From Verrucomicrobia bacterium UBA1263 (GTDB taxonomy: Bacteria > Verrucomicrobiota > Verrucomicrobiia > Limisphaerales > UBA1412), in NCBI GenBank assembly GCA_002308515.1, contig DBVN01000028.1, positions 16,177 to 71,144 on the forward strand: DNA of 54,968 bases. The letters run 5' to 3'. This document shows, in pieces, positions 5,988 to 34,153 of the stretch. Position 1 is the stretch's first letter, and each line of letters starts with the position of its first letter. The position numbers and the translations under genes were made by a program. The notes beneath the pieces were generated by a model, which saw only the letters and a program-made list of their open reading frames with translations, made no database searches and was not told the DNA's origin.

Positions 5988-7097
5988 TCAGAGCCACTCG
6001 GATTCAGGATAGGAACCAAGGATCTTGACGTAAGCGCCCAAATGTTCCAGTTCATCGATCGCAAGCGCCACTTCCGTATCCTCAGTATGTCCTTCAATGT
6101 CCAGGAAGAAATAGTATTCCCACGCTTTGCGCTTGTTAGGACGGGACTCGATACGGGTCATATTCACCTTGTGACGTGTGAAAGGTTCCAAAGCCTTGAA
6201 CAAGGAACCAACTCTGTCCGGAACACTGATCATCAAACTGCTGCGATCCTTACCTGTTCGGGGCGGACACTGGCGGCCTAAGACCAGGAACCGGGTGCAG
6301 TTCGCCTGACTATCCTGAACATTATCCTCCAGAATATCCAAATCATAAGTTTCAGCGGCCATCGAGCTAGCCAGCGCCGCTCCTTCCGGATCTTTAGAGG
6401 TCAGCTCCGCCGCGCGCGCGGTGGAAGATGTCTCCATAATCTCCACATGCGACAAACTTCGCTGAATCCAAAAACGACACTGAGCCAGCGCCTGCGGATG
6501 GGAATACACACGCTTGACTTGATCCCGGCGGCAGCGCCCGATGAGACATTGACGGATGGGCATCATGATCTGAGCCACGATCTTCAAATGGGTATCCACC
6601 AGCATATCCAGTGTATTGTTCACAATACCTTCTGTCGAATTCTCAACAGGAGCTACACCGTAATCCGCACGGCCTTTGCCGACTTCGGTAAAGACATCCG
6701 CTACTGTCCTCTGCGGGATATACGTTAAACTGGTGCCAAAGCGTTTTAACGCAGCCTGATGCGTAAAGGTTGCCTCTGGTCCCAGGTAAGCCACCACCAG
6801 CGTCTTCTGCAACGACAACGCAGCTGACATCACTTCCCGGTAAATGGCGCACAAGGATTCATCTTTCATCGGACCTTGGTTCAGGGACTTTACACGATCA
6901 AAAACATCCCTCTCACGGTGCGGAGCGTAGATTTCCTGACCATTTCTGATTTTGATCTCACCAATGCCCAGCGCGTGGCGGATCCGTTCATTCAGCAGCT
7001 GAACGATTTCTGCGTCCAGACGATTAATTTCCTTACGATGGAGTGTCAATTCTTGCTCAATCGAGGAACTTGTTAAAGGATTTTCCGGGGAAGACAT
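5988..7097 (-). CDS. pheA: bifunctional chorismate mutase / prephenate dehydratase (P-protein)
   Basis: N-terminal CM_2-like helix (LHRKEINRLDAEIVQLLNERI), PDT domain (VAYLGPEATFTHQAA, TRFLVLG) and C-terminal ACT domain (ESRPNKR, YYFFLDIEGH). Confidence 0.9.
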   Translation of the reverse strand: MSSPENPLTSSSIEQELTLHRKEINRLDAEIVQLLNERIRHALGIGEIKIRNGQEIYAPHRERDVFDRVKSLNQGPMKDESLCAIYREVMSAALSLQKTLVVAYLGPEATFTHQAALKRFGTSLTYIPQRTVADVFTEVGKGRADYGVAPVENSTEGIVNNTLDMLVDTHLKIVAQIMMPIRQCLIGRCRRDQVKRVYSHPQALAQCRFWIQRSLSHVEIMETSSTARAAELTSKDPEGAALASSMAAETYDLDILEDNVQDSQANCTRFLVLGRQCPPRTGKDRSSLMISVPDRVGSLFKALEPFTRHKVNMTRIESRPNKRKAWEYYFFLDIEGHTEDTEVALAIDELEHLGAYVKILGSYPESEWL

Positions 7098-7102
7098 AAA
7101 AA

Positions 7103-7858
7103 CTATTCTTGGTTAGAGTTTGAATCAGTATTCGGTTCTGTATTTTTCGCTTCTTCCGAATTTTCAGTTTCGGGCACATTATCTATCGGTTTGCCAGAAG
7201 GATCTAAAGGCAATTCGGTTTGAGCCGTTTCTTCGCTATCCGTATCAGGGACAACTGTCTGGAGCGGAGCCGGTGTATAGCGCCGTAATTCGGAAGCGTC
7301 GGGCAAATCATCCAGCGAGGCTATCCCAAAGTATTGTAGGAAATCAGATGTCGTTCCATATAAAGTAGGTCTCCCCGGCAAATCGGCTTTGCCTCGTTGC
7401 TCCACCAGTTTGCGTTCCAGTAAAGTTCCAATCACTCCATCCACGGAAACGCCGCGAATCTCTTCCATCTCCGCTCGTGTCATGGGCTGACGATAGGCAA
7501 TGATAGCCAATGTTTCCAGCGCTGGCAGTGTCAAACGAGGCGGACGAGGTTTTTCTCCCGTGAGAAAACGAATCCAAGGCGCGTATTCAGATTGGCAAAC
7601 AAACTGCCAACTGCCTGCCACACAGGTCAATCTCCAGGATCTTCCCAGTGCTTCATATTCATCCCTGAGAATATTCAGTTCCTGTTCGATCTCATTCGGT
7701 TTGAGTTTTTTGAATGCCTTGATCGCGAGATCTTCGCTTTTATCCGCGACTCCGCTGAATACTTGTCTGATCTCGCCTATAGAGAGAGGTCTCGGAGATG
7801 CGAAAAGAAGGGATTCAAGGATTGATTTTACTTCGTAATTCATATTATTCAGCGGCAT
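7103..7858 (-). CDS. scpB: segregation and condensation protein B
   Basis: SILESLLFASPRPLSIGEI..., LETLAIIAYRQPMTRAEMEEIRGV and GRPTLYGTTSDFLQYFG are typical ScpB winged-helix repeats. Acidic low-complexity tail. Overlaps scpA by 14 nt. Confidence 0.9.
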   Translation of the reverse strand: MPLNNMNYEVKSILESLLFASPRPLSIGEIRQVFSGVADKSEDLAIKAFKKLKPNEIEQELNILRDEYEALGRSWRLTCVAGSWQFVCQSEYAPWIRFLTGEKPRPPRLTLPALETLAIIAYRQPMTRAEMEEIRGVSVDGVIGTLLERKLVEQRGKADLPGRPTLYGTTSDFLQYFGIASLDDLPDASELRRYTPAPLQTVVPDTDSEETAQTELPLDPSGKPIDNVPETENSEEAKNTEPNTDSNSNQE

Positions 7859-8588
7859 CTAAAATATCTATTTCACCAAAGGCATGAGACTGCTCCACCC
7901 GAATCTCATGCAAACGCGCCAGTTCCAAAACAGCCAGAAAAGTCACCACCACTTCAAAACGAGTATAAGACTGCTCCAGAAGTTCCAGGAAATTTACCTT
8001 TTTCTTCTCTCTCAGCACGTTTTTGAGAAACGTTATCTTCTCGCGAACAGTCCAGCGTTCTCCCACGATCTCCTGTGGGACACCCCGTTCCTTCATCCGT
8101 GCCAGGACATCATTGACAGCTTGCAGGAGATCCATCAATGTGATCTTAGGTCCTTGCTGTTCAAAATCATCCGGAGGAAATTCCTGTTTTACGGATTGAT
8201 GCGGAAAACAATTTTCCTGTTCAGCTTCACAGCGCTGGAGTTCACTTGCAGCTTCTTTAAACTTCTTGTATTCAACAAGCTTACGAATCAATTCCCAACG
8301 AGGATCCACATTATTTTCCTCGTCCAGATCCGTCAGCGGTCGCTGATCTACCGGCAGCAACTCTTTGCTTTTGATCCAAATCAAAGTAGCCGCCATCACA
8401 ACAAACTCTCCAGCAACATCCAGATCCAGACGTTTCATCTGTTCCAGGTATTCCACAAACTGAGTCGCAATCCGTGTGAGGTTGACCTCGTAAATATCCA
8501 CTTCCTCCTTTTTGATGAGATAAAGGAGCAAGTCCAGAGGACCTTCAAAAACAGGTAGTTGTATCTTGTACTCAGCCATGGTGAACAC
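7845..8588 (-). CDS. scpA: segregation and condensation protein A
   Basis: FEGPLDLLLYLIKKEEVDIYEVNLTRI N-terminus and C-terminal VVTFLAVLELARL. The track start is GTG at 8588; an ATG at 8579 (MAEYKIQLPVFEGPLDLL) is an equally good start. Confidence 0.9.
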   Translation of the reverse strand: MFTMAEYKIQLPVFEGPLDLLLYLIKKEEVDIYEVNLTRIATQFVEYLEQMKRLDLDVAGEFVVMAATLIWIKSKELLPVDQRPLTDLDEENNVDPRWELIRKLVEYKKFKEAASELQRCEAEQENCFPHQSVKQEFPPDDFEQQGPKITLMDLLQAVNDVLARMKERGVPQEIVGERWTVREKITFLKNVLREKKKVNFLELLEQSYTRFEVVVTFLAVLELARLHEIRVEQSHAFGEIDILDAAE

Positions 8589-8649
8589 ATTTCGGCAAAA
8601 AGCCGTGACTATTTTTTCACAGAGAACGGGAAAATGCGAGCATTCTCAT

Positions 8650-10149
8650 TTATAAGTTATCCACAACGGATTCCACCTGACCATCTTGGAGCATAGTCCT
8701 GATTCGAGTGCCTGGTGTGATCTCTTTCACACCTCGGACGATCTTGCCGTTTTTCACATCCACGGTAATGGTGTATCCCCTTTTGAGACTTGCCTTTGGA
8801 TCCAGCAAATTCAATGATTGCTTCAATAGTTCCAGCTCCGCGCGTTTGTCGTGAAAAGCATGACTCCATTGATTCTCTAATCGGAGACGCAGCATTTGCA
8901 ATTCTCTTCGGGGCTGCTCTGTTTTCCCGGAAAGTCGGATATTTTTGAAACGCAGTTGGATATCCCGAAATTTATCATAATCTTCCGTCAGCTTTCGTTT
9001 CATTGCCTTGTCCAGGCTTTGACTGATGTCGTCCAGCCTCAACCAAAAATCTTCCAGTTTGCGTTTCGGAGATAAAAGCGAAAGATGTTTTTTTACAGTT
9101 TCGATCCGTTCTCTGCAGGAGTCCAAAGTCCGATCCATCCATAACTGTATCCGTCTCAAGGCTTCATCCAGTTCATCGCGAATATCTTCCAAATTCTGGA
9201 TCAGGAAACGAGCCGCCGCCGTAGGAGTAGCGCAACGGACATCCGCAACAAAGTCACTGATGCAGAAATCTATCTCATGCCCCACCGCGGAAATGACCGG
9301 CAAAGCGGAAGCCGCGATGGCTCTGGCGACGATCTCCTCATTGAAGCACCAGAGATCCTCTATGCTCCCGCCGCCGCGTGTGACCAGGATCACATCCAAT
9401 CCCGGCTGTCCTTTTTTCTGTTGGGCTTGATGATAACGATTCAGCAGATCTATGGCCGCTACGATATCTTCCGCCGCTCCTTCGCCCTGAACTTTGCTGG
9501 GAGCTAAAATGACATCCACCTCCAAACGGCCGGAAGGAGTCCGCAATACCTTTAAAATATCCTGTAACGCCGCTCCTGTTGGAGAAGTAACGATCCCCAC
9601 CCGACGAGGATAAGCCGGAACAGGACGCTTGCGCTCTTCATCAAAGAGACCTTCCGCCTCCAGCTTTTGTTTCAGCTGCTCAAAGGCGATCGCCAGATTT
9701 CCTTGCCCCGCTTCTTCCAGCTCACGCACGATCAACTGATACTGACCTCTGGGCTCATAAACGCTTAGCTCGCCGCGAAGGATGAGTTTTTTCCCGTCCT
9801 CCACCAATGAGCGTTTGACACCTGTCGTTCCTTTGAACAAAACGCACTGGATCTGTGCTCCCGCATCCTTCAATGTGAAATAGCGGTGTCCGGAACTCTG
9901 TACCCTCAGACCGGAAACCTCGCCGGAAACCCAAACCTCTCCAAACTGTTTTTCTAAAAGAAACTTGATCTCTCCGGTCAACTCCTCGACCGTATAGACT
10001 TTGCGATCAAGCTCCAAGGAAGCATCGATCCCTATCGGTTCGCTTGTTTTGTGGGCAGAACCTGTCCTTGTTCCCTTGGCAGGCGGAGGTGTTTCGCTCT
10101 TTCCAAGGAGCATATCACCAAAATCCCATTGAATATATTCTTCCCCCAT
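8650..10149 (-). CDS. xseA: exodeoxyribonuclease VII large subunit
   Basis: OB-fold N-domain (VWVSGEVSG...SGHRYFTLKD), catalytic core (ILVTRGGGSIEDLWCFNEE, SAVGHEIDF) and a long coiled-coil C-terminus. ATG at 10149 lies 5 nt after the ymdB stop; the track uses an overlapping TTG at 10158. About 50 aa precede the OB fold. Confidence 0.9.
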   Translation of the reverse strand: MGEEYIQWDFGDMLLGKSETPPPAKGTRTGSAHKTSEPIGIDASLELDRKVYTVEELTGEIKFLLEKQFGEVWVSGEVSGLRVQSSGHRYFTLKDAGAQIQCVLFKGTTGVKRSLVEDGKKLILRGELSVYEPRGQYQLIVRELEEAGQGNLAIAFEQLKQKLEAEGLFDEERKRPVPAYPRRVGIVTSPTGAALQDILKVLRTPSGRLEVDVILAPSKVQGEGAAEDIVAAIDLLNRYHQAQQKKGQPGLDVILVTRGGGSIEDLWCFNEEIVARAIAASALPVISAVGHEIDFCISDFVADVRCATPTAAARFLIQNLEDIRDELDEALRRIQLWMDRTLDSCRERIETVKKHLSLLSPKRKLEDFWLRLDDISQSLDKAMKRKLTEDYDKFRDIQLRFKNIRLSGKTEQPRRELQMLRLRLENQWSHAFHDKRAELELLKQSLNLLDPKASLKRGYTITVDVKNGKIVRGVKEITPGTRIRTMLQDGQVESVVDNL

Positions 10150-10154
10150 AGAAA

Positions 10155-10958
10155 TCAATTCTGGTTTTCGCTATCGTCCCATTTTCGTGAAACCCGTTCG
10201 ATCGAAACTGCCCGTCCCGTTTCATTATCCACTGTCACAATGACTCCGTTCAGGCGGACATCCGTGGAAGCGATCTCAAAACGCTGAGGCATTCCGGTCG
10301 TAAAACCTTTTACAACAGCCTCGATATTCCGGCCGATCACACTTTCATGCGCTCCCGTAAAACCAGCATCACAAAGAAAAGCCGTTCCTCCGGGGAAGAT
10401 CTCTTCATCCGCGGTCTGCACATGGGTATGTGTCCCGATCACCGCGGAAACTTTTCCATCCAGGAACCGACCCATCGCAATTTTTTCGCTGGTTGCTTCC
10501 GCGTGGAAATCCAGAAAGATGACAGGCGTTTGCTTGCGCAGTTCTCCCACAATGGAAAGCACCACCTGAAACGGATCGTCCACAGGCTTCATAAACGTCC
10601 TTCCCATCAGATTGATCACACCTATCGGCGGACAGACACCTCTTACCTCGAAGATATTCCAGCCCGATCCGGGTGTCCCGGCTGGATAATTCGCCGGACG
10701 CAGCAGACGAGGCTCTTTTTCCAGTAATCCCGCCGTTTCCTTCTGATCCCAAACATGATCGCCCAATGTGATCACCTGAGCGCCATACTTAAACAGTTCG
10801 GCCGCCGTCATCGCAGTGATCCCAGAACCCCCGGCTGAATTTTCTCCGTTCACAATAACAAACTCGATATCATGCTCTTTCACCAAAGAAGGCACAATAT
10901 CTCTCACCGCGTTTCGTCCCGGTCTTCCAACGACATCACCAACAAACAGTATCCGCAT
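10155..10958 (-). CDS. ymdB: YmdB-family metallophosphoesterase (TIGR00282-type 2',3'-cyclic-nucleotide phosphodiesterase)
   Basis: MRILFVGDVVGRPGR N-terminus, then GENSAGG, GDHVWD, DFHAEATSEK and GTHTHVQTAD metal-ligand motifs. Confidence 0.85.
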   Translation of the reverse strand: MRILFVGDVVGRPGRNAVRDIVPSLVKEHDIEFVIVNGENSAGGSGITAMTAAELFKYGAQVITLGDHVWDQKETAGLLEKEPRLLRPANYPAGTPGSGWNIFEVRGVCPPIGVINLMGRTFMKPVDDPFQVVLSIVGELRKQTPVIFLDFHAEATSEKIAMGRFLDGKVSAVIGTHTHVQTADEEIFPGGTAFLCDAGFTGAHESVIGRNIEAVVKGFTTGMPQRFEIASTDVRLNGVIVTVDNETGRAVSIERVSRKWDDSENQN

Positions 10959-11044
10959 ACTACGTCACCCAGATATTACCTCACAATCTGTCTGCGAAAA
11001 AGGTAAATATCTGGCCGAAATCGATAAAACAGTATCCCTTTTTC

Positions 11045-11073
11045 TTGACCTTCACGAACAGAGGCTTTTTACT
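11045..11073 (+). promoter_or_regulatory. candidate sigma70-type promoter for the SNF transporter gene
   Basis: TTGACC (11045-11050), 17-nt spacer, TTTACT (11068-11073). Only 11 nt before the ATG at 11085, so it would give a very short leader. Consensus match only. Confidence 0.25.
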
Positions 11074-11084
11074 TTTCTTGCTTT

Positions 11085-12434
11085 ATGAGTGATCGAGGTC
11101 ATTGGTCTGGAAGTTACGGTTTTACGCTCGCAGCTATCGGTTCCGCTGTCGGTTTGGGAAATCTATGGCGTTTTCCCTATTTGGCCGGCATGAACGGCGG
11201 CGGCGCGTTCGTTCTTCTTTATTTGTTCTTATCCATCATCTTAGGTGTCAGTTTGCTGATCGCGGAACAGGCTTTAGGCCGACACTTTGCGACAAGTCCT
11301 TACGGGGCATTTCGTTCCATCCATCCCAAGTTCGGCTTTACCGGGACTATCGCTATTCTGGCCAACGTCCTTATTTTTTCCTTCTACGGCATGATTGGCG
11401 GCTGGGTCATTTTTTATCTGGTCACTTCTATCTTCTGCCCATCCATCCAAACGCCCGAAGGCTTCGCACAATTCTCAGGCGGGATCGCTCTGCCCATTAT
11501 CGCACAGCTAATTTTTATGTTCCTGACCGCTCTGCTGGTCTGGTTCGGCATATCCAAAGGCATTGAAAAAGGAAACCGCGTGATGATGCCGCTTCTTTTT
11601 ATCATCTTGATATTGATGTGCATACGATCTCTGACACTGCCAGGCGCGTGGGAAGGCGCTATCTTCCTGTTCAAACCGGACTTCTCGAAAATCTCCGCCG
11701 CGACGGTCGTGGCCGCCACGGGACAAGTCTTTTTCTCCATGAGTGTCGGTTTCGGCATCATGCTGACGTATGCCAGTTATCTCAAGAAGGATACAAATAT
11801 CGTCAAGACCAGCTGGGCCGTCGCCTTGAGCAACTGCCTGGTCGCGGTACTGGCCGGACTGGCCATTCTGCCGGCGGTATTCGCTTTCCACATGGAACCG
11901 GCACAGGGGCCGGGACTTATGTTCGTGGTTATTCCGGAAGTATTCCGCATGATGACGGGCGGTTACTGGTTTGGCATCCTGTTTTTTGTCCTTGTTTTCT
12001 TTGCCGCTCTGAGTTCCTCCATTTCGATTCTGGAAGTTCCCGTCACCTATCTGGTGGATGAGCATAAGATCTCACGCAAGAAGGCTGTCGTGATCGCCAG
12101 CTGTATCTGCACGGCTCTGGGCATCCTCTGCACTCTGTCCATGGGCAGCACTTTGGGATGGTTCAAGGTCGGAGGTCTGGGGATCTTTGACCTGATGGAC
12201 TTCATCAGCAACAACATGCTGCTGCCGGTCGGAGGCGTGCTGCTGTGTATCCTGATCGCATACGTCTGGGGAATGAAAGGTGTTTTGGCTGAAGTCACAC
12301 AGGACGGTCAAATACCTTTTCACGGTCAAAAATGCTGGTGCTTCATCATCCGTTATCTGGCACCACTGGCTATCATCTGCATCCTGCTAAGTGGAACAGG
12401 GATATTAGAGATCATCAGTGCTTTTGCGGAATAG
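11085..12434 (+). CDS. sodium-dependent transporter, neurotransmitter:sodium symporter (SNF) family
   Basis: Hallmark N-terminus AAIGSAVGLGNLWRFPYLAGMNGGGAF. About 11-12 TM segments. Confidence 0.9.
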   Translation: MSDRGHWSGSYGFTLAAIGSAVGLGNLWRFPYLAGMNGGGAFVLLYLFLSIILGVSLLIAEQALGRHFATSPYGAFRSIHPKFGFTGTIAILANVLIFSFYGMIGGWVIFYLVTSIFCPSIQTPEGFAQFSGGIALPIIAQLIFMFLTALLVWFGISKGIEKGNRVMMPLLFIILILMCIRSLTLPGAWEGAIFLFKPDFSKISAATVVAATGQVFFSMSVGFGIMLTYASYLKKDTNIVKTSWAVALSNCLVAVLAGLAILPAVFAFHMEPAQGPGLMFVVIPEVFRMMTGGYWFGILFFVLVFFAALSSSISILEVPVTYLVDEHKISRKKAVVIASCICTALGILCTLSMGSTLGWFKVGGLGIFDLMDFISNNMLLPVGGVLLCILIAYVWGMKGVLAEVTQDGQIPFHGQKCWCFIIRYLAPLAIICILLSGTGILEIISAFAE

Positions 12435-30088: not shown

Positions 30089-31063
30089 ATGAGCGAAACA
30101 ACTTATTACTTTGAAAACATCAGACTGGCTCAGCAGCTTTTTCACGGAAACATCCCTAATCTCAAGGCTCTTGAAACCCAATTTGATGTTAAAACAGTCG
30201 CGCGGGATAACTGGATCCGAATCGAAGGAGAACCTGCTGTTGTTGAAAGAGTCGAAAAGATCCTTCAGATGATCGAAGACTCGGTCAAAAACGGTATCAT
30301 CGTTCGAGCCAGCGACTTCTCTCATGCCATCAAAGTTGCTGAGCAAGACGGCTTGGAAACACTGCGCACACTTCAGGCATCCCGTATTTATACCTCCGCG
30401 CGCAAGCCTGTTATCATTCCCAAAACTCTTGGTCAACGCCAGTATGTGGAACTCATTCGCCAAAATGATATTACATTTGGAGTAGGTCCGGCCGGAACCG
30501 GCAAAACCTATCTGGCTATGGCTATGGCGGTCGCGGCTCTCAAAGAAGAGAAATGCACACGGCTCATTTTAACACGTCCAGCAGTGGAAGCCGGCGAGGC
30601 TTTGGGATTCCTTCCCGGAGATCTTCAGGAGAAAATCACTCCCTATCTGCGTCCTCTTTATGACGCGCTTTATGACATGATGCCTTCCGAGGACGTTCTC
30701 AAACATCAGGAACGCGCCACCATTGAGATCGCTCCTCTGGCTTATATGCGCGGACGTACACTGAACAACTCCTTTGTCATACTGGACGAAGCACAGAACG
30801 CGACACGGGAACAGATCCTCATGTTCCTCACCCGTATGGGAATCAATACTAAGATCGTGATCACGGGTGATCCTTCTCAAGTGGATCTGCCGTATCCCCG
30901 GAAATCCGGTCTTCCGGAAGCTCTCTATCTGCTGAAAAATATTCCCGGCATCGGTATCAAAGAATTTCAGAAACGTGACGTGGTGCGCCATCCTCTGGTT
31001 CAACGCATCATCCAGGCTTATGAAACCGAAAAAGCTCAAACATCCCGATCTTCCGGCCATTAA
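30089..31063 (+). CDS. phoH: PhoH-family ATPase
   Basis: Walker A GPAGTGKTYLAMA, plus ILTRPAVEAGEALGFLPGD, FVILDEAQN and GDPSQVDLP. Confidence 0.95.
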   Translation: MSETTYYFENIRLAQQLFHGNIPNLKALETQFDVKTVARDNWIRIEGEPAVVERVEKILQMIEDSVKNGIIVRASDFSHAIKVAEQDGLETLRTLQASRIYTSARKPVIIPKTLGQRQYVELIRQNDITFGVGPAGTGKTYLAMAMAVAALKEEKCTRLILTRPAVEAGEALGFLPGDLQEKITPYLRPLYDALYDMMPSEDVLKHQERATIEIAPLAYMRGRTLNNSFVILDEAQNATREQILMFLTRMGINTKIVITGDPSQVDLPYPRKSGLPEALYLLKNIPGIGIKEFQKRDVVRHPLVQRIIQAYETEKAQTSRSSGH

Positions 31064-31544
31064 GACACAACCACCGGCTGACAGTTTTATCTTAACCTTT
31101 CGCAATCTTCACCCTGGGTTTCGTTTCAATATCCCTCTTTGCCGTCCTGTCGTTCTGCTGCTGCTTTCCCGAATGGGTGTTAAAAAAGCGGAACTCAGCT
31201 GGTATTTCGTAAACGCCAAACGCATGGCCTGTGTGAATGAAAAATACCTGGGGCACGAAGGTTCCACAGATGTCATTACTTTTCAGTATCTCCAACATCC
31301 CCAAAAAGATATTCTCTTTGGCGATGTCTTCATCTGTATTGATGAAGCGCACTATTACGCAAAAGAGTTCCAGACGACACCTCAAAGCGAAACTCTCCGC
31401 TATCTCATTCATTCTATCCTTCATTTACAGGATTTTGATGATATTGATCCCGCAGATAGAAAAATCATGAAATCACATGAAAACAAGTGGGTTAAATGGA
31501 TCGAATCCCAATTAAACATGGACCAGATTCTTTTAAAACGCTGA
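31020..31544 (+). CDS. ybeY: rRNA maturation endoribonuclease YbeY
   Basis: TDVITFQY and the zinc motif HSILHLQDFDD (H-x3-H-x5-D/H). ATG 31020 chosen; it overlaps the phoH end by 44 nt and the start is uncertain. Confidence 0.85.
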   Translation: MKPKKLKHPDLPAIKTQPPADSFILTFRNLHPGFRFNIPLCRPVVLLLLSRMGVKKAELSWYFVNAKRMACVNEKYLGHEGSTDVITFQYLQHPQKDILFGDVFICIDEAHYYAKEFQTTPQSETLRYLIHSILHLQDFDDIDPADRKIMKSHENKWVKWIESQLNMDQILLKR

Positions 31545-31744
31545 TTTTTTCATTTTTCAGAAAAAAATTAAGATTCTTGTTGTTTTCAATAAGCCCAGAG
31601 CTTGACCAGTCAAGTTATTTGCTTCCAAATAAAAGCCTTGCAAGCTTATTGCAAGCGTGAAAAAGGAAAGCTGATCTTGTGTTTTTTAGTCTTTTGATCC
31701 GTGATCTTTTTCTGATCCACACGGAGACACCATGCAGAAAACAA

Positions 31745-31775
31745 AAAAAGCCTTTCTAGGGCTTTTGCTTTCTTT
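31745..31775 (+). terminator. candidate terminator about 200 nt downstream of ybeY
   Basis: Stem AAAGCC / GGCTTT (31747-31752 / about 31760-31765) followed by TGCTTTCTTTTGTGTGTTT. Confidence 0.4.
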
Positions 31776-31792
31776 TGTGTGTTTGTGTCCAG

Positions 31793-31830
31793 GTAACAAA
31801 AAAAGCCCTTCAAAAAGGGCTTTCTGTTTT
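31793..31830 (-). terminator. rho-independent terminator of the minus-strand cassette (also usable on plus)
   Basis: Stem AAGCCCTT / AAGGGCTT (31803-31810 / 31815-31822) with a 4-nt loop. An A-run on plus before it gives a U-tract on the minus strand. It sits 13-20 nt downstream of the stop at 31843. Confidence 0.75.
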
Positions 31831-31842
31831 CTGATCTACTTT

Positions 31843-32169
31843 TTAAGGAACGCGCGGCACTCCATACTTTCTGTGTCTTGCTTCCTCTGTTTGCCAGCTC
31901 ATTTTATAGTAGGTGCTGTTTGTGTGAACGGGGTCTGTTTTGGGGTCTTTTGGCTGTCCGTCTAGTGGTTTGAATAATTCAGCAAAAGGCGGATCTTTTT
32001 TCTCTTCAAAAGCGCTTGCTATTGCTCCAATTATTAGAAGCAAAGCAAAAAAACCAATAATCGGAGCCCAAACAATCAGCACAAGCCGGTTCTGTTGCTT
32101 GTCGTTCAATGTTGAGCAGACGGCAACACCGGCGGCAATGTCTTTTTTAAGTGAATGCTTTTTACCCAT
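31843..32169 (-). CDS. hypothetical single-pass membrane protein (cassette gene 5)
   Basis: 108 aa. TM helix LVLIVWAPIIGFFALLLIIGAIASAF and a Pro/Lys-rich C-terminal tail. Starts 2 nt after the stop of the ligase-like gene. Confidence 0.55.
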   Translation of the reverse strand: MGKKHSLKKDIAAGVAVCSTLNDKQQNRLVLIVWAPIIGFFALLLIIGAIASAFEEKKDPPFAELFKPLDGQPKDPKTDPVHTNSTYYKMSWQTEEARHRKYGVPRVP

Positions 32170-32171
32170 AA

Positions 32172-32816
32172 CTACAACACACCCCCTTTATAAGCAAATT
32201 TCTGCCCATCTGCAAGCTGAATCACCCATCCATCGCAAGGCGTACCGTTCCAATCTGTGGGAATTTCCCGCGGTGGGTGTCCCTCCTCTGTCCCCGTGCA
32301 CCAGTGAGACTTGAGCCACCAGGCACCAGGCTTCAGAAAGCCCTTGCATATATCCGCACAGAGTTGCGCACGTCCTCCGGCCTCTATGGTGTATAAAAGT
32401 TCAAATTCAAAAACCGTGTTACTACACGGGGCCGGAGAGCTGATAATCCTCGCCAGGTCTTTTCCAATTCTTCCGTTTCCCCTGGTAACCCAATGATCCC
32501 CTTTTTCATCAGAAAAAGTCTGTAAAAAGATTCCATCATGCTTGGGCCAATAGCGGATCGCTTTCCTGGCTATTTCCCAGGATACTTTTTTTAATCCGTA
32601 ATTAGGTACTGCAAGCTTGTAGTCTGGATACCTTGCCCAACCTTTGAGCGTTCGCGGTGGCTTGCAAATATTGCCACAATCCGCGCTCATTGCGTCATAA
32701 TCAGCATCAGAAAGCCCAGTTTCTTTCCCTTGCCAGTAAAGCGCGTCCGCTTTTTTTAATTCGTTCCGCTCCCAGCGGATCGCATCCAATGGTGCACTCT
32801 CAAAACTCATACTCAT
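32172..32816 (-). CDS. stand-alone NAD+-dependent-ligase (LigA)-like adenylation domain protein, 214 aa
   Basis: Domain-Ia-like ALYWQGKETGLSDADYD. Motif I WPKHDGIF (KxDG), followed by VTRGNGRIGKDL (compare LigA TRGDGxxGEDI). FEFELLY resembles motif III, DGWVIQ motif IV and FAYKGG motif V. No OB, Zn-finger, HhH or BRCT region. Confidence 0.6.
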   Translation of the reverse strand: MSMSFESAPLDAIRWERNELKKADALYWQGKETGLSDADYDAMSADCGNICKPPRTLKGWARYPDYKLAVPNYGLKKVSWEIARKAIRYWPKHDGIFLQTFSDEKGDHWVTRGNGRIGKDLARIISSPAPCSNTVFEFELLYTIEAGGRAQLCADICKGFLKPGAWWLKSHWCTGTEEGHPPREIPTDWNGTPCDGWVIQLADGQKFAYKGGVL

Positions 32817-32884
32817 ACTTTTTCCTTTTTAAAGTTAGGGGAGCTTTTCAGCTCCCCTTGTGTTGCTGTGTTTAACCCCGGCTT

Positions 32885-32968
32885 TTATATCCTCTTAGTT
32901 ATTAAAAACTTGAGAAGGTTAAAAAGCCAGTTGATGCAAAAGGCCACACTGATCAATAACTTCATCAT
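32885..32968 (-). CDS. candidate 27-aa hydrophobic peptide (not in ORF track)
   Basis: The minus strand translates to MMKLLISVAFCINWLFNLLKFLITKRI: one hydrophobic helix plus a basic C-terminus. No clear SD. Lies between cassette genes. Confidence 0.25.
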   Translation of the reverse strand: MMKLLISVAFCINWLFNLLKFLITKRI

Positions 32969-33023
32969 CAGAATTCAGTAAATTTATTCCAACGCACCCC
33001 TCGACAGCCAATCCATCTTGATC

Positions 33024-33515
33024 CTAATCGTTTAATGTCATGGAATCAGCGATATTCTCAGACGCAACAAAATCTTTAAAACGCCGGAAAAGTGCCCAAT
33101 TCTTTGTATGATAACAAAATGCGAGTAACCAATCCTCACGCAAGAAATACAACCGCGCGCCCAACACGTTCCAGCAATAAAAATCTGAACCAAAGTTTGT
33201 CAAATAATGCTCATCACCAAACTTCGCTGGGAACGCTGAATAAGGCATTGCGCCTGGTGTGATCAAATAATAATCGCCTTCAATTTCTGCTATATTTACT
33301 TCATACTCACCAACCTCAACCGTTGCAAGCACTTTTGGTAGACATTCCTTGAGATCAATATATTCTCCTGAATAGGGATGTCGAATAATTCCATCAATGC
33401 AATTAAAATTGACTTTTTTTACAATAACGACATTTTCACTTTTTACATTTTCCATATTATCTATTCTTTCTAGGTCTTTTTTGTGGCTGGGGAAAAGACC
33501 TAAACCCCTCGGCAT
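33024..33515 (-). CDS. hypothetical protein (cassette gene 2), no recognisable family
   Basis: 163 aa and soluble. ATG 33515 preceded by AGAGG. Alternative ATG at 33455 (MENVK). Confidence 0.55.
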   Translation of the reverse strand: MPRGLGLFPSHKKDLERIDNMENVKSENVVIVKKVNFNCIDGIIRHPYSGEYIDLKECLPKVLATVEVGEYEVNIAEIEGDYYLITPGAMPYSAFPAKFGDEHYLTNFGSDFYCWNVLGARLYFLREDWLLAFCYHTKNWALFRRFKDFVASENIADSMTLND

Positions 33516-33617
33516 TTATTTGCCTCTGAACCGCTTAATCAGCTTCCAGAGCCCGCTGGCTAAAAAGGCCATTGTGGCCGTCAAATTCGCCAGCAAGAAA
33601 AGTTTTAATAAAATCAT
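33516..33617 (-). CDS. candidate 33-aa hydrophobic peptide (not in ORF track), stop abuts the next ATG
   Basis: The minus strand translates to MILLKLFLLANLTATMAFLASGLWKLIKRFRGK. AAAGG lies 8-9 nt before the ATG (33615-33617). Its TAA (33516-33518) is immediately followed by the ATG of gene 33024-33515. Confidence 0.4.
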   Translation of the reverse strand: MILLKLFLLANLTATMAFLASGLWKLIKRFRGK

Positions 33618-33947
33618 ATTTTAACCTTTCCATTTACGAGCACTGTTGCTACCATTTCGCCCGTGAATTTTATTTCATAGCCCCTTTGCAAGTGATCCAC
33701 ACCGCGGGGGCTCTTTTTTACCCTCGCTCAGCCCGCGAGCATTGCGCACACACGCAACGGAAAAAATCTACAACAAAAACAAAAAAAATCAATATGCCTG
33801 ACCTTCTAACGCCCTTGACATCAAAAAGATGCGTTTTTATTTACCGTAAAGCATTTTATATACCATTGGTAGATTTTAGCCGAAATTTTGACGCAAAAAG
33901 GAACGGATCCAAAAAATCGAGTTTGCTCTTTTTTTGGAGCTTTTTCC

Positions 33948-34012
33948 GCGCGAATAGAAACGAGCAGGCGAGTAGAACGACCAGGCGAATAGCAGACGAT
34001 TCAGGCGACTGA
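33948..34012 (+). repeat. four direct copies of a (A/G)(G/C)GCGA-N-T-R-R decamer at 17-20 nt spacing
   Basis: GCGCGAATAG (33948), AGGCGAGTAG (33966), AGGCGAATAG (33983), AGGCGACTGA (34003). Located about 140 nt upstream of the efflux-operon start. Confidence 0.6.
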
Positions 34013-34153
34013 TACAGATTAAAAAAAAATTTTTACACAAAATCATCCTATCCTGGTTCTTTATAAGGTGGCGGACATTGTTATTGTCTTCGCCACAGTT
34101 AGAAATTATTATGGTTTCGGGTTCATGGTAAGAATCTAAAACGGGATATAAAT

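Follow-up and report, generated by a model that had tools for sequence, protein, structure and literature searches.

A stand-alone LigA-like protein with domain Ia and a reduced nucleotidyltransferase core, carried on phage-derived cassettes of Verrucomicrobiota

Introduction

What could a cell or a phage do with the adenylation module of a DNA ligase and nothing else of the enzyme? The NAD+-dependent DNA ligase LigA is a textbook example of an enzyme built from several domains, and on its own the adenylation module is considered incapable of joining DNA. The question is raised by a gene for a protein of 214 amino acids (aa) in a stretch of 54,968 nucleotides from Verrucomicrobia bacterium UBA1263 (GenBank assembly GCA_002308515.1, contig DBVN01000028.1, positions 16,177 to 71,144 of the forward strand), here called the window. 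A first-pass annotation of this DNA had proposed a miniaturised LigA-like adenylation domain. We find that the protein belongs to a family which is a smaller version of the LigA adenylation module, kept as an independent protein and moving on phage cassettes. Our preferred reading, to which we give a probability of roughly 0.45, is that of a miniaturised temperate-phage enzyme that adenylylates itself with NAD+ and acts on nucleic-acid 5'-phosphate ends.

Results

A LigA adenylation module in 214 residues

The open reading frame (ORF) starts with ATG, stops with TAG and lies exactly where the first-pass annotation had placed it. The gene and the landmarks of its product are:

32172-32816, minus strand: gene of the stand-alone LigA-like protein (214 aa), made up of domain Ia and a reduced nucleotidyltransferase (NTase) domain (ORF, homology, fold, 35 relatives, substitution rates)
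32676-32789, minus strand: domain Ia helices, residues 10-47, with the signature Y27-W28...D37..Y40-D41 for binding nicotinamide mononucleotide (NMN) (E. coli LigA alignment, conservation, model helices 10-28 and 37-47)
32529-32546, minus strand: motif I PKHDGI, residues 91-96, aligned with LigA KLDG/KYDG; K92, D94 and G95 invariant
32454-32489, minus strand: VTRGNGRIGKDL, residues 110-121, equivalent of LigA TRGDGxxGEDI, with R112 matching E. coli Arg136 (alignments and invariant residues)
32391-32411, minus strand: motif III strand FEFELLY, residues 136-142, with invariant E139 aligned by hhalign to the Glu of LigA RGE (model strand 136-141)
32346-32378, minus strand: helix GGRAQLCADIC with invariant R149, equivalent of the Arg in LigA NPRNAAAG (E. 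coli Arg200) (hhalign; model helix 148-157)
32217-32237, minus strand: motif IV CDGWVIQ, residues 194-200, aligned to IDGxVIK; D195-G196 conserved, Gln in place of the canonical Lys
32184-32204, minus strand: motif V candidate QKFAYKG, residues 205-211; K210 is invariant and K206 nearly so; the pattern A-[FY]-K matches LigA AFKFP and follows the motif IV hairpin in the model

All the motifs listed earlier are present at the residues given for them, and the spacings quoted were correct. In a profile alignment to E. coli LigA, Y27, W28, D37, Y40 and D41 (residues 27-41 read YWQGKETGLSDADYD) correspond to Tyr22, His23, Asp32, Tyr35 and Asp36, K92 to Lys115, and T111-R112 to Thr135-Arg136. K92 is the predicted AMP-accepting lysine. 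The protein has the fold and the order of elements of the LigA adenylation module (Ia plus NTase, about residues 1-316; EC 6.5.1.2; PF01653). Common to both are the NMN-binding Tyr/Asp/Tyr/Asp of Ia, the KxDG lysine, TRGxG, the motif III Glu, the NPRN-type Arg, the motif IV Asp-Gly and the motif V Lys. The LigA module is longer by about 100 residues, and in the 214-aa protein all of the loops have been cut back. D41 and K92 are 51 residues apart (79 in E. coli LigA), K92 and T111 19 residues (20 in E. coli), and E139 and K210 71 residues, about half of the 141 between Glu173 and Lys314. Residues 65-214 form the NTase domain with the catalytic motifs according to the model, Foldseek and the profile alignment. 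Motif V lies beyond the reach of the profile alignment and is assigned from its position, its pattern and a β-hairpin in the model (strands 192-200 and 206-209).

The resemblance to LigA is far beyond chance. For comparison we took full-length phage LigAs from a scan of viral contigs. BLASTP aligned residues 10-122 with one of them, of 626 aa (contig L012), at 31% identity (E = 8e-12), and hhalign matched the family profile to the same protein with a probability of 96.8%. Against a small alignment of LigA N-termini the probability was 97.6% (E = 3.9e-12, 199 aligned columns), and here E139 fell on the Glu of motif III, R149 on the Arg of NPRN, and DGWVI on IDGxVIK. Among PDB sequences the family profile matched LigA adenylation domains best (4glw, E = 0.004), in three collinear segments comprising Ia, motif I with TRGDG, and motif IV. 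Two PHROGs families named 'NAD-dependent DNA ligase' matched weakly (E about 1e-4, residues 18-125). Phage LigAs are the closest in sequence, with 31% identity over the first 120 residues, and they already have a shortened linker between Ia and motif I. The first-pass annotation had named PF01653 as the profile with which to check the assignment; here Pfam does not detect the protein at all, and a scan of it reported neither PF01653 nor any other family even at E <= 10. A single-sequence search of PDB sequences matched only YkoF, which we judged spurious.

The structure prediction was confident. The AlphaFold2 model built on the family alignment had a mean predicted confidence (pLDDT) of 85.5 and a predicted template modelling score (pTM) of 0.76. 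In the Foldseek search of PDB the top 35 matches were all adenylation domains of NAD+ ligases (LigA), with a probability of 1.00 and E down to 1.2e-7, and the highest template modelling (TM) scores, 0.52-0.56, were to closed NAD+-bound LigA states (7k72, 1tae, 5tt5). NAD+ ligases took all of the top 30 places among predicted viral structures (E down to 4e-9, TM up to 0.60). Thus, BLASTP, hhalign and the Foldseek search of the model agree on the LigA-type Ia plus NTase identity first proposed. With the NTase fold and the KxDG nucleophile both present, the protein is a member of the covalent nucleotidyltransferase superfamily.

The protein ends four residues past K210, and the model contains no further domain, so the oligonucleotide-binding (OB) fold that follows motif V in LigA is absent. 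Neither an OB fold nor a zinc finger, helix-hairpin-helix (HhH) or BRCT domain was found by Pfam and PHROGs in the protein or in the neighbouring genes of the 12 genomic contexts described below, in agreement with the earlier claim that everything past motif V is missing. The origin would be a phage NAD+-dependent DNA ligase, of which only the NMN-binding Ia and a pared-down NTase core of about 145 residues were retained.

A conserved stand-alone family

A word-indexed search of 5.8 billion proteins gave 21 relatives and a profile search 35 (90%-identity clusters). An exhaustive HMMER scan of 1.84 billion representatives returned four 50%-identity clusters and one false positive, a 1846-aa match (P0025) which is a repetitive surface protein. 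All 35 relatives are 161-224 aa long and end 0-8 residues past motif V. The protein searches returned no significant relative of full or intermediate length, and precomputed Pfam domains fell on none of the relatives. A pattern scan of GTDB representative genomes found no family member, GenBank phages searched by tblastn yielded no more than a marginal match to a Campylobacter phage (E = 0.3), and PLSDB plasmids gave nothing. As far as sampled, this rare family occurs only in temperate phages and prophages of uncultured Verrucomicrobiota and in phage-derived cassettes. Since Pfam and NCBIfam lack it and PHROGs barely touch it, annotation pipelines call its members hypothetical proteins.

The family has two clades with about 32% identity between them, and clade 2 is closer to LigA in detail (ITRGDGRTGLDIS, YGRNDLVR, DIDGWV, VAFKK). 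In 24 aligned sequences Y27, D37, K92, D94, G95, T111, R112, G113, G115, G118, E139, R149, H171, D195, G196, V198 and K210 are invariant. Of the other NMN-site residues, D41 reaches 90% conservation or more in the family alignments and position 40 is either Y or F. The family also has and conserves KxDG in motif I, the Glu of motif III, Asp-Gly in motif IV and the Lys of motif V, while no conserved aromatic residue could be assigned to motif IIIa. The pairwise ratio of nonsynonymous to synonymous substitution (dN/dS) is 0.08-0.28, with synonymous sites near saturation, and the family is under purifying selection.

We therefore rule out, with near certainty, both a chance ORF and a decayed remnant of the 5' part of a full-length ligA that was disrupted. 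The 35 relatives share a narrow length range and a conserved C-terminus, and dN/dS is well below 1. The DNA downstream encodes unrelated small proteins rather than remnants of OB, zinc-finger or HhH domains, and the internal loops are shortened consistently across the family. A distinct minimal protein, as had been argued from the window, is what these data describe.

Phage neighbourhoods and the absence of a ligase partner

We read twelve genomic contexts, the window and contigs labelled L001 and onwards. Seven of them are prophage-like, with the gene order DUF2958-ArdC (ArdcN + MPTase-PolyVal)-[about 95 aa]-NTase-[small protein]. An endonuclease-like phrog_4225 gene heads this order (the assignment was tested in L001). 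An integrase gene on the opposite strand follows where the contig is long enough, sometimes with a tRNA gene beyond. In the phage contigs L004 and L023, one for each clade, the NTase gene closes a replication/recombination block (RuvC, DnaC-like) and lies just upstream of the small terminase (terS), a GpA-type (cos-cutting) large terminase, portal and ClpP. In L003 the gene has a dUTPase and numerous small ORFs around it, and in the contexts that remain it is chromosomal, as it is in the window. The position of the gene, beside ArdC and endonuclease-like neighbours or between a replication block and a cos terminase, points to DNA metabolism.

Directly downstream of the NTase gene, nine of the twelve contexts have a gene for a small membrane protein, which overlaps it or follows after 2-14 nt. 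Its sequence is very divergent, and it takes two forms, of about 110-130 aa with one transmembrane segment or of about 55-62 aa with two. The abutting membrane-protein gene that had been noticed in the window is therefore real and recurrent, but it is not universal, being absent in L001 and L018. These two contigs have instead a conserved acidic protein of 39-48 aa (MRDMEKNIYYYIEEPEIPVDWDEVERAV...) and a 259-aa protein that matched no family (L001 6591-7538, L018 3373-4319).

These neighbourhoods bear on a first alternative, in which the protein would be the catalytic subunit of a split NAD+ ligase, either heterodimeric as in T5-type phages (PDB 9hu3/9i5i) or like the pieces of about 300 aa in phiKZ-like phages, with a separate OB/HhH subunit. 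The fold and the profile searches both matched chains of the heterodimeric ligase of PR1 phage, PHROG 3359 ('NAD-dependent DNA ligase', profile length 325) matches weakly, and the viral fold search listed phage 'putative DNA ligase' proteins of 308-332 aa. However, a companion OB/HhH ligase gene was not found within 6-8 kb in the 12 contexts, where unannotated neighbours were scanned as well, although a distant partner is possible; nor did Pfam or PHROGs reveal a zinc-finger or BRCT neighbour there. No neighbour is common to all twelve contexts, the cassette in the window has only three genes, and the NTase is about 100 residues shorter than split-ligase subunits. Since no ligase-derived partner gene lies nearby, we consider a split-ligase subunit very improbable.

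A strain-variable cassette behind ybeY

In the window the gene is part of a short island:

31558-34029, no strand assigned: 2.47-kb strain-variable, phage-derived cassette right behind the stop codon of ybeY (site unoccupied in sister strain L019; ends homologous to phage contig L004)
33024-33515, minus strand: first cassette gene, 163 aa, in a slot that varies between alleles (non-homologous genes in its place in L009, L020 and L004)
31843-32169, minus strand: abutting downstream gene for a 108-aa single-pass membrane protein, joined as TAG-TT-ATG (2-nt spacer), with one strongly hydrophobic segment

The location in an accessory cassette, suspected before, is borne out by strains of the same species. 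Their flanks are nearly identical, with PhoH at 98.8-100% and MacA at 99.5% on the protein level and 97-99% identity in DNA, and the differences lie between ybeY and the macA-like gene. In L019 the site is empty (7454-7480), with a spacer of about 135 bp. The L009/L010 allele (L009 7067-9019) encodes an NTase 54% and a membrane protein 45% identical to those of the window, and its first gene is non-homologous. L020 carries a 3.2-kb version (7470-10560) with extra genes that include a phrog_4225 endonuclease-like gene. Its NTase allele (8049-8681, minus strand) is a mosaic, with an N-terminus like that of the L004 phage allele and the rest 95% identical in DNA to the L009 allele, which indicates recombination inside the gene. 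The site directly after the ybeY stop codon is an insertion hotspot.

The noncoding ends of the cassette (31558-31822 and 33700-34029) are 74-87% identical to 9046-9310 and 6942-7242 of L004, and this homology stops at the same points in phage and host. Because both ends match in this way, we take the cassette for a discrete, exchangeable, moron-like unit. It contains three genes and neither integrase nor transposase. We considered and rejected a prophage attachment-site remnant of a single integrase event: the island has no integrase, its ends coincide with the homologous segment in L004, and the only sequence common to both junctions is a run of T5.

A proposed activity and its competitors

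In the reading that we prefer, domain Ia would close over the NTase pocket and position NAD+. Lys92 of KxDG would then attack the adenylyl phosphate to give a covalent Lys-AMP and release NMN. The AMP would be passed to a nucleic-acid 5'-phosphate, at a nick or at a cohesive or broken DNA end, as in step 2 of a ligase, and sealing may or may not follow. Since the protein lacks OB, HhH and zinc domains, it would engage its substrate through its own small surface or with the help of another protein, e.g. the single-stranded-DNA-binding ArdC-like protein encoded just upstream in most prophages. The earlier suggestion that the protein may adenylylate itself with NAD+, and would hardly seal nicks alone, is a reasonable one. 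We infer the use of NAD+ and the adenylylation of the lysine; the identity of the acceptor and the occurrence of ligase step 3 are speculative.

The residues that such chemistry would need are those that the family keeps. The NMN site, motif I, TRG, E139, R149, D195-G196 and K210 are invariant or nearly so across both clades. Pseudo-enzymes normally lose their nucleophile, whereas the catalytic lysine is retained throughout this family. In LigA, Arg200 reportedly contacts DNA or the nick (Zhu & Shuman 2005; Nandakumar et al. 2007). The transfer of AMP to a polynucleotide 5'-phosphate is suggested by the retention of its equivalent together with the DNA-handling neighbours (ArdC, endonuclease-like, RuvC, cos-type terminase).

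Several observations weigh against this proposal. The motif IV Lys position is E or Q across the family and Gly in one member (P0022), so the Gln first seen in the window reflects a family-wide change. The equivalent of Glu113, two residues before the catalytic Lys, is lost and replaced by an aromatic or variable residue. The motif IV lysine of LigA (Lys290 in E. coli) and Glu113, which reads adenine N6, are both important for its activity; the chemistry or the nucleotide specificity of the family may therefore differ. K206 might stand in for the motif IV lysine, but it is absent in part of clade 2. Isolated Ia plus NTase fragments of LigA self-adenylylate and do not seal nicks. ArdC is absent from the window, L009, L020, L003, L004 and L023, so there is no universal DNA-binding partner. 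Lastly, the host chromosome retains the cassette in the form of divergent alleles while the rest of the phage is missing, which is more characteristic of genes for conflict (defence or addiction) than of helpers in phage DNA replication.

Loss of the DNA-clamping domains and the altered pocket residues (the equivalents of E113 and K290) could also mean that the target is not DNA. The enzyme would then use NAD+ to adenylylate a protein or small molecule (AMPylation), or it would be an RNA-specific ligase for tRNA or RNA repair, which its weaker PDB fold matches to T4 Rnl1 and capping enzymes would suit. On the other hand, the contexts show no end-healing kinase or phosphatase or other RNA-repair gene nearby, and the Arg200 equivalent, a polynucleotide contact, is retained. 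We know of no member of the ligase superfamily that AMPylates proteins, which counts against a target other than nucleic acid. We regard this alternative as quite improbable.

The main competitor to a polynucleotide-end adenylyltransferase would place the protein in a phage-host conflict module as an NAD+ sensor or switch, serving defence, superinfection exclusion, addiction or counter-defence. The LigA-like module would bind NAD+ or be adenylylated by it, and signal the NAD+ status or a cue of infection. Its output would pass through the co-translated small membrane protein or another partner and would not consist in joining nucleic acids. The tight coupling of the NTase to a membrane-protein gene in nine of the twelve contexts, despite the divergence of that partner, is in line with this. 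So is the behaviour of the moron-like cassette, which is present, absent or swapped between strains with 97-99% identical flanks and has conserved noncoding ends and terminator-like hairpins. The gene also sits next to integrases, a position shared with other conflict genes (L007, L005, L017), and has lost two canonical catalytic-pocket residues. Solo NLig-Ia domains have been proposed as NAD+ sensors or shields (PMC9503650). The seventh entry in the Foldseek PDB list is 8jyd, 'A genetically encoded sensor based on a bacterial DNA ligase', which shows that such a domain is able to serve as a sensor.

A pure sensor fits other data less well. That the nucleophile Lys, the Glu of motif III, the equivalent of Arg200 and the Lys of motif V are so strictly conserved speaks for full nucleotidyl transfer over mere binding, and L001 and L018 have no membrane partner. 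Of the three cassette proteins (NTase, membrane protein, 163-aa protein) none matched a defence-system model of PADLOC-DB v2 at E <= 1. We judge the conflict module somewhat unlikely. Doubtful, and less probable still, is a bolder proposal in two forms. The protein could be the smallest natural polynucleotide-end adenylyltransferase or ligase, an NAD+-dependent enzyme of 200 residues with no OB or HhH clamp, by which temperate cos-type phages and the chromosomal cassette that derives from them would adenylylate or seal particular DNA ends such as cohesive ends or nicks, or it could form with its membrane partner an NAD+-adenylylation switch for exclusion or counter-defence.

Discussion

How does this family compare with known systems? 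Besides its smaller size it differs from LigA in lacking the OB, zinc, HhH and BRCT domains, in the E or Q at the motif IV Lys, in the lost Glu113 equivalent and in falling below the Pfam threshold. The carriers differ too. Iyer et al. (2022, PMC9503650) report NAD+ ligases solely from phages above about 68 kb, whereas the 214-aa family is found in temperate phages of roughly the 40-kb class or in cassettes.

Apart from full ligases, only solo Ia domains have been reported in phages (PMC9503650). They were found in 81 phages, and a role in conflict or as NAD+ sensor or shield was proposed (Iyer, Burroughs, Anantharaman, Aravind 2022, PMC9503650). Like our family, the solo NLig-Ia proteins are a piece of LigA on its own in phages, with the NAD+-binding residues kept. 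They consist of Ia only, whereas in the 214-aa family Ia is still joined to the catalytic NTase and its nucleophilic lysine.

The split T5-like ligases (9hu3/9i5i, 'PR1 phage heterodimeric DNA ligase') and the phiKZ-like pieces of 308-332 aa are likewise phage LigA-type catalytic chains without C-terminal DNA-binding domains. They share the short linker between Ia and motif I, with the lysine near residue 84-92. In contrast to our family they are about 310-340 aa long, with a full-size NTase, and have a second ligase-derived subunit, a partner for which we found no gene near the 214-aa family.

A bare or nearly bare NTase is capable of lysine adenylylation, as the autonomous NTase of T4 RNA ligase 2 (residues 1-249) and the Chlorella virus ligase (298 aa) illustrate, and Rnl2(1-249) forms a phosphodiester at a pre-adenylylated nick. 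Compared to the 214-aa family, both are ATP-dependent and larger, have no Ia domain and keep the motif IV lysine. The first-pass annotation knew of no characterised protein with a stand-alone Ia plus reduced NTase, and in the libraries, databases and literature that we searched we found no description of such a natural architecture either.

That so small a module is kept under purifying selection implies a role for NAD+-dependent adenylyl transfer without a DNA clamp. An understanding of this role could establish the minimal catalytic core of the ligase superfamily, or uncover a new NAD+-linked step in the way phages handle DNA or in their conflict with the host. As a compact module that binds NAD+ or adenylylates, the protein could also be of use in biosensor and enzyme engineering. 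For a ligase specialist the family is surprising and readily testable, with a biological role that is conjectural.

Other features of the locus

Two further elements lie in the intergenic parts of the cassette:

32838-32858, minus strand: stable hairpin GGGGAGCU-GAAA-AGCUCCCC, located between the 163-aa and NTase genes, about 22 nt before the start codon of the latter (fold energy z = -3.0)
31746-31823, no strand assigned: two terminator-like hairpins downstream of the membrane-protein gene (pattern scan only)

The first hairpin, with its GAAA loop, has no clear T-tract and is absent from L004. An Rfam scan of the cassette gave no credible RNA family. At the upstream end of the cassette, 17-nt iteron-like tandem repeats (consensus GCGAATAGAAACGACCAG, 2.4-4 copies) span 33950-33992, to about 34010. 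They are conserved in L004 (about 6900-7000) and may be a protein-binding site. None of the three cassette proteins drew a useful match from Pfam, NCBIfam or PADLOC. The 163-aa protein had no match in Pfam, PHROG, NCBIfam or PADLOC and no detectable relatives, and its single-sequence AlphaFold model was unusable (pLDDT 37.7).

Some observations concern the other contigs. In L007 (6941-9853) conflict-type CTD10/DUF2326/MC6 genes lie by the integrase beside the cassette, and in L005 (9296-10758) and L017 (5838-7288) a reverse transcriptase (RVT_1) and an HRDC protein lie beyond the integrase. In L015, a viral contig of 241 kb, a phage LigA stops after 304 aa (Ia, NTase and the start of OB) and is followed by a 338-aa homing-endonuclease-like ORF (10007-12023); this LigA appears to have been split by a mobile insertion.

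At the insertion site itself, the longest form of the ybeY-like ORF (30975-31544, plus strand) has a GTG start and overlaps the end of the PhoH gene by 89 nt, and the true ybeY start is probably further downstream. On the sister contigs the gene callers had placed a 106-aa ORF on the opposite strand at the ybeY site.

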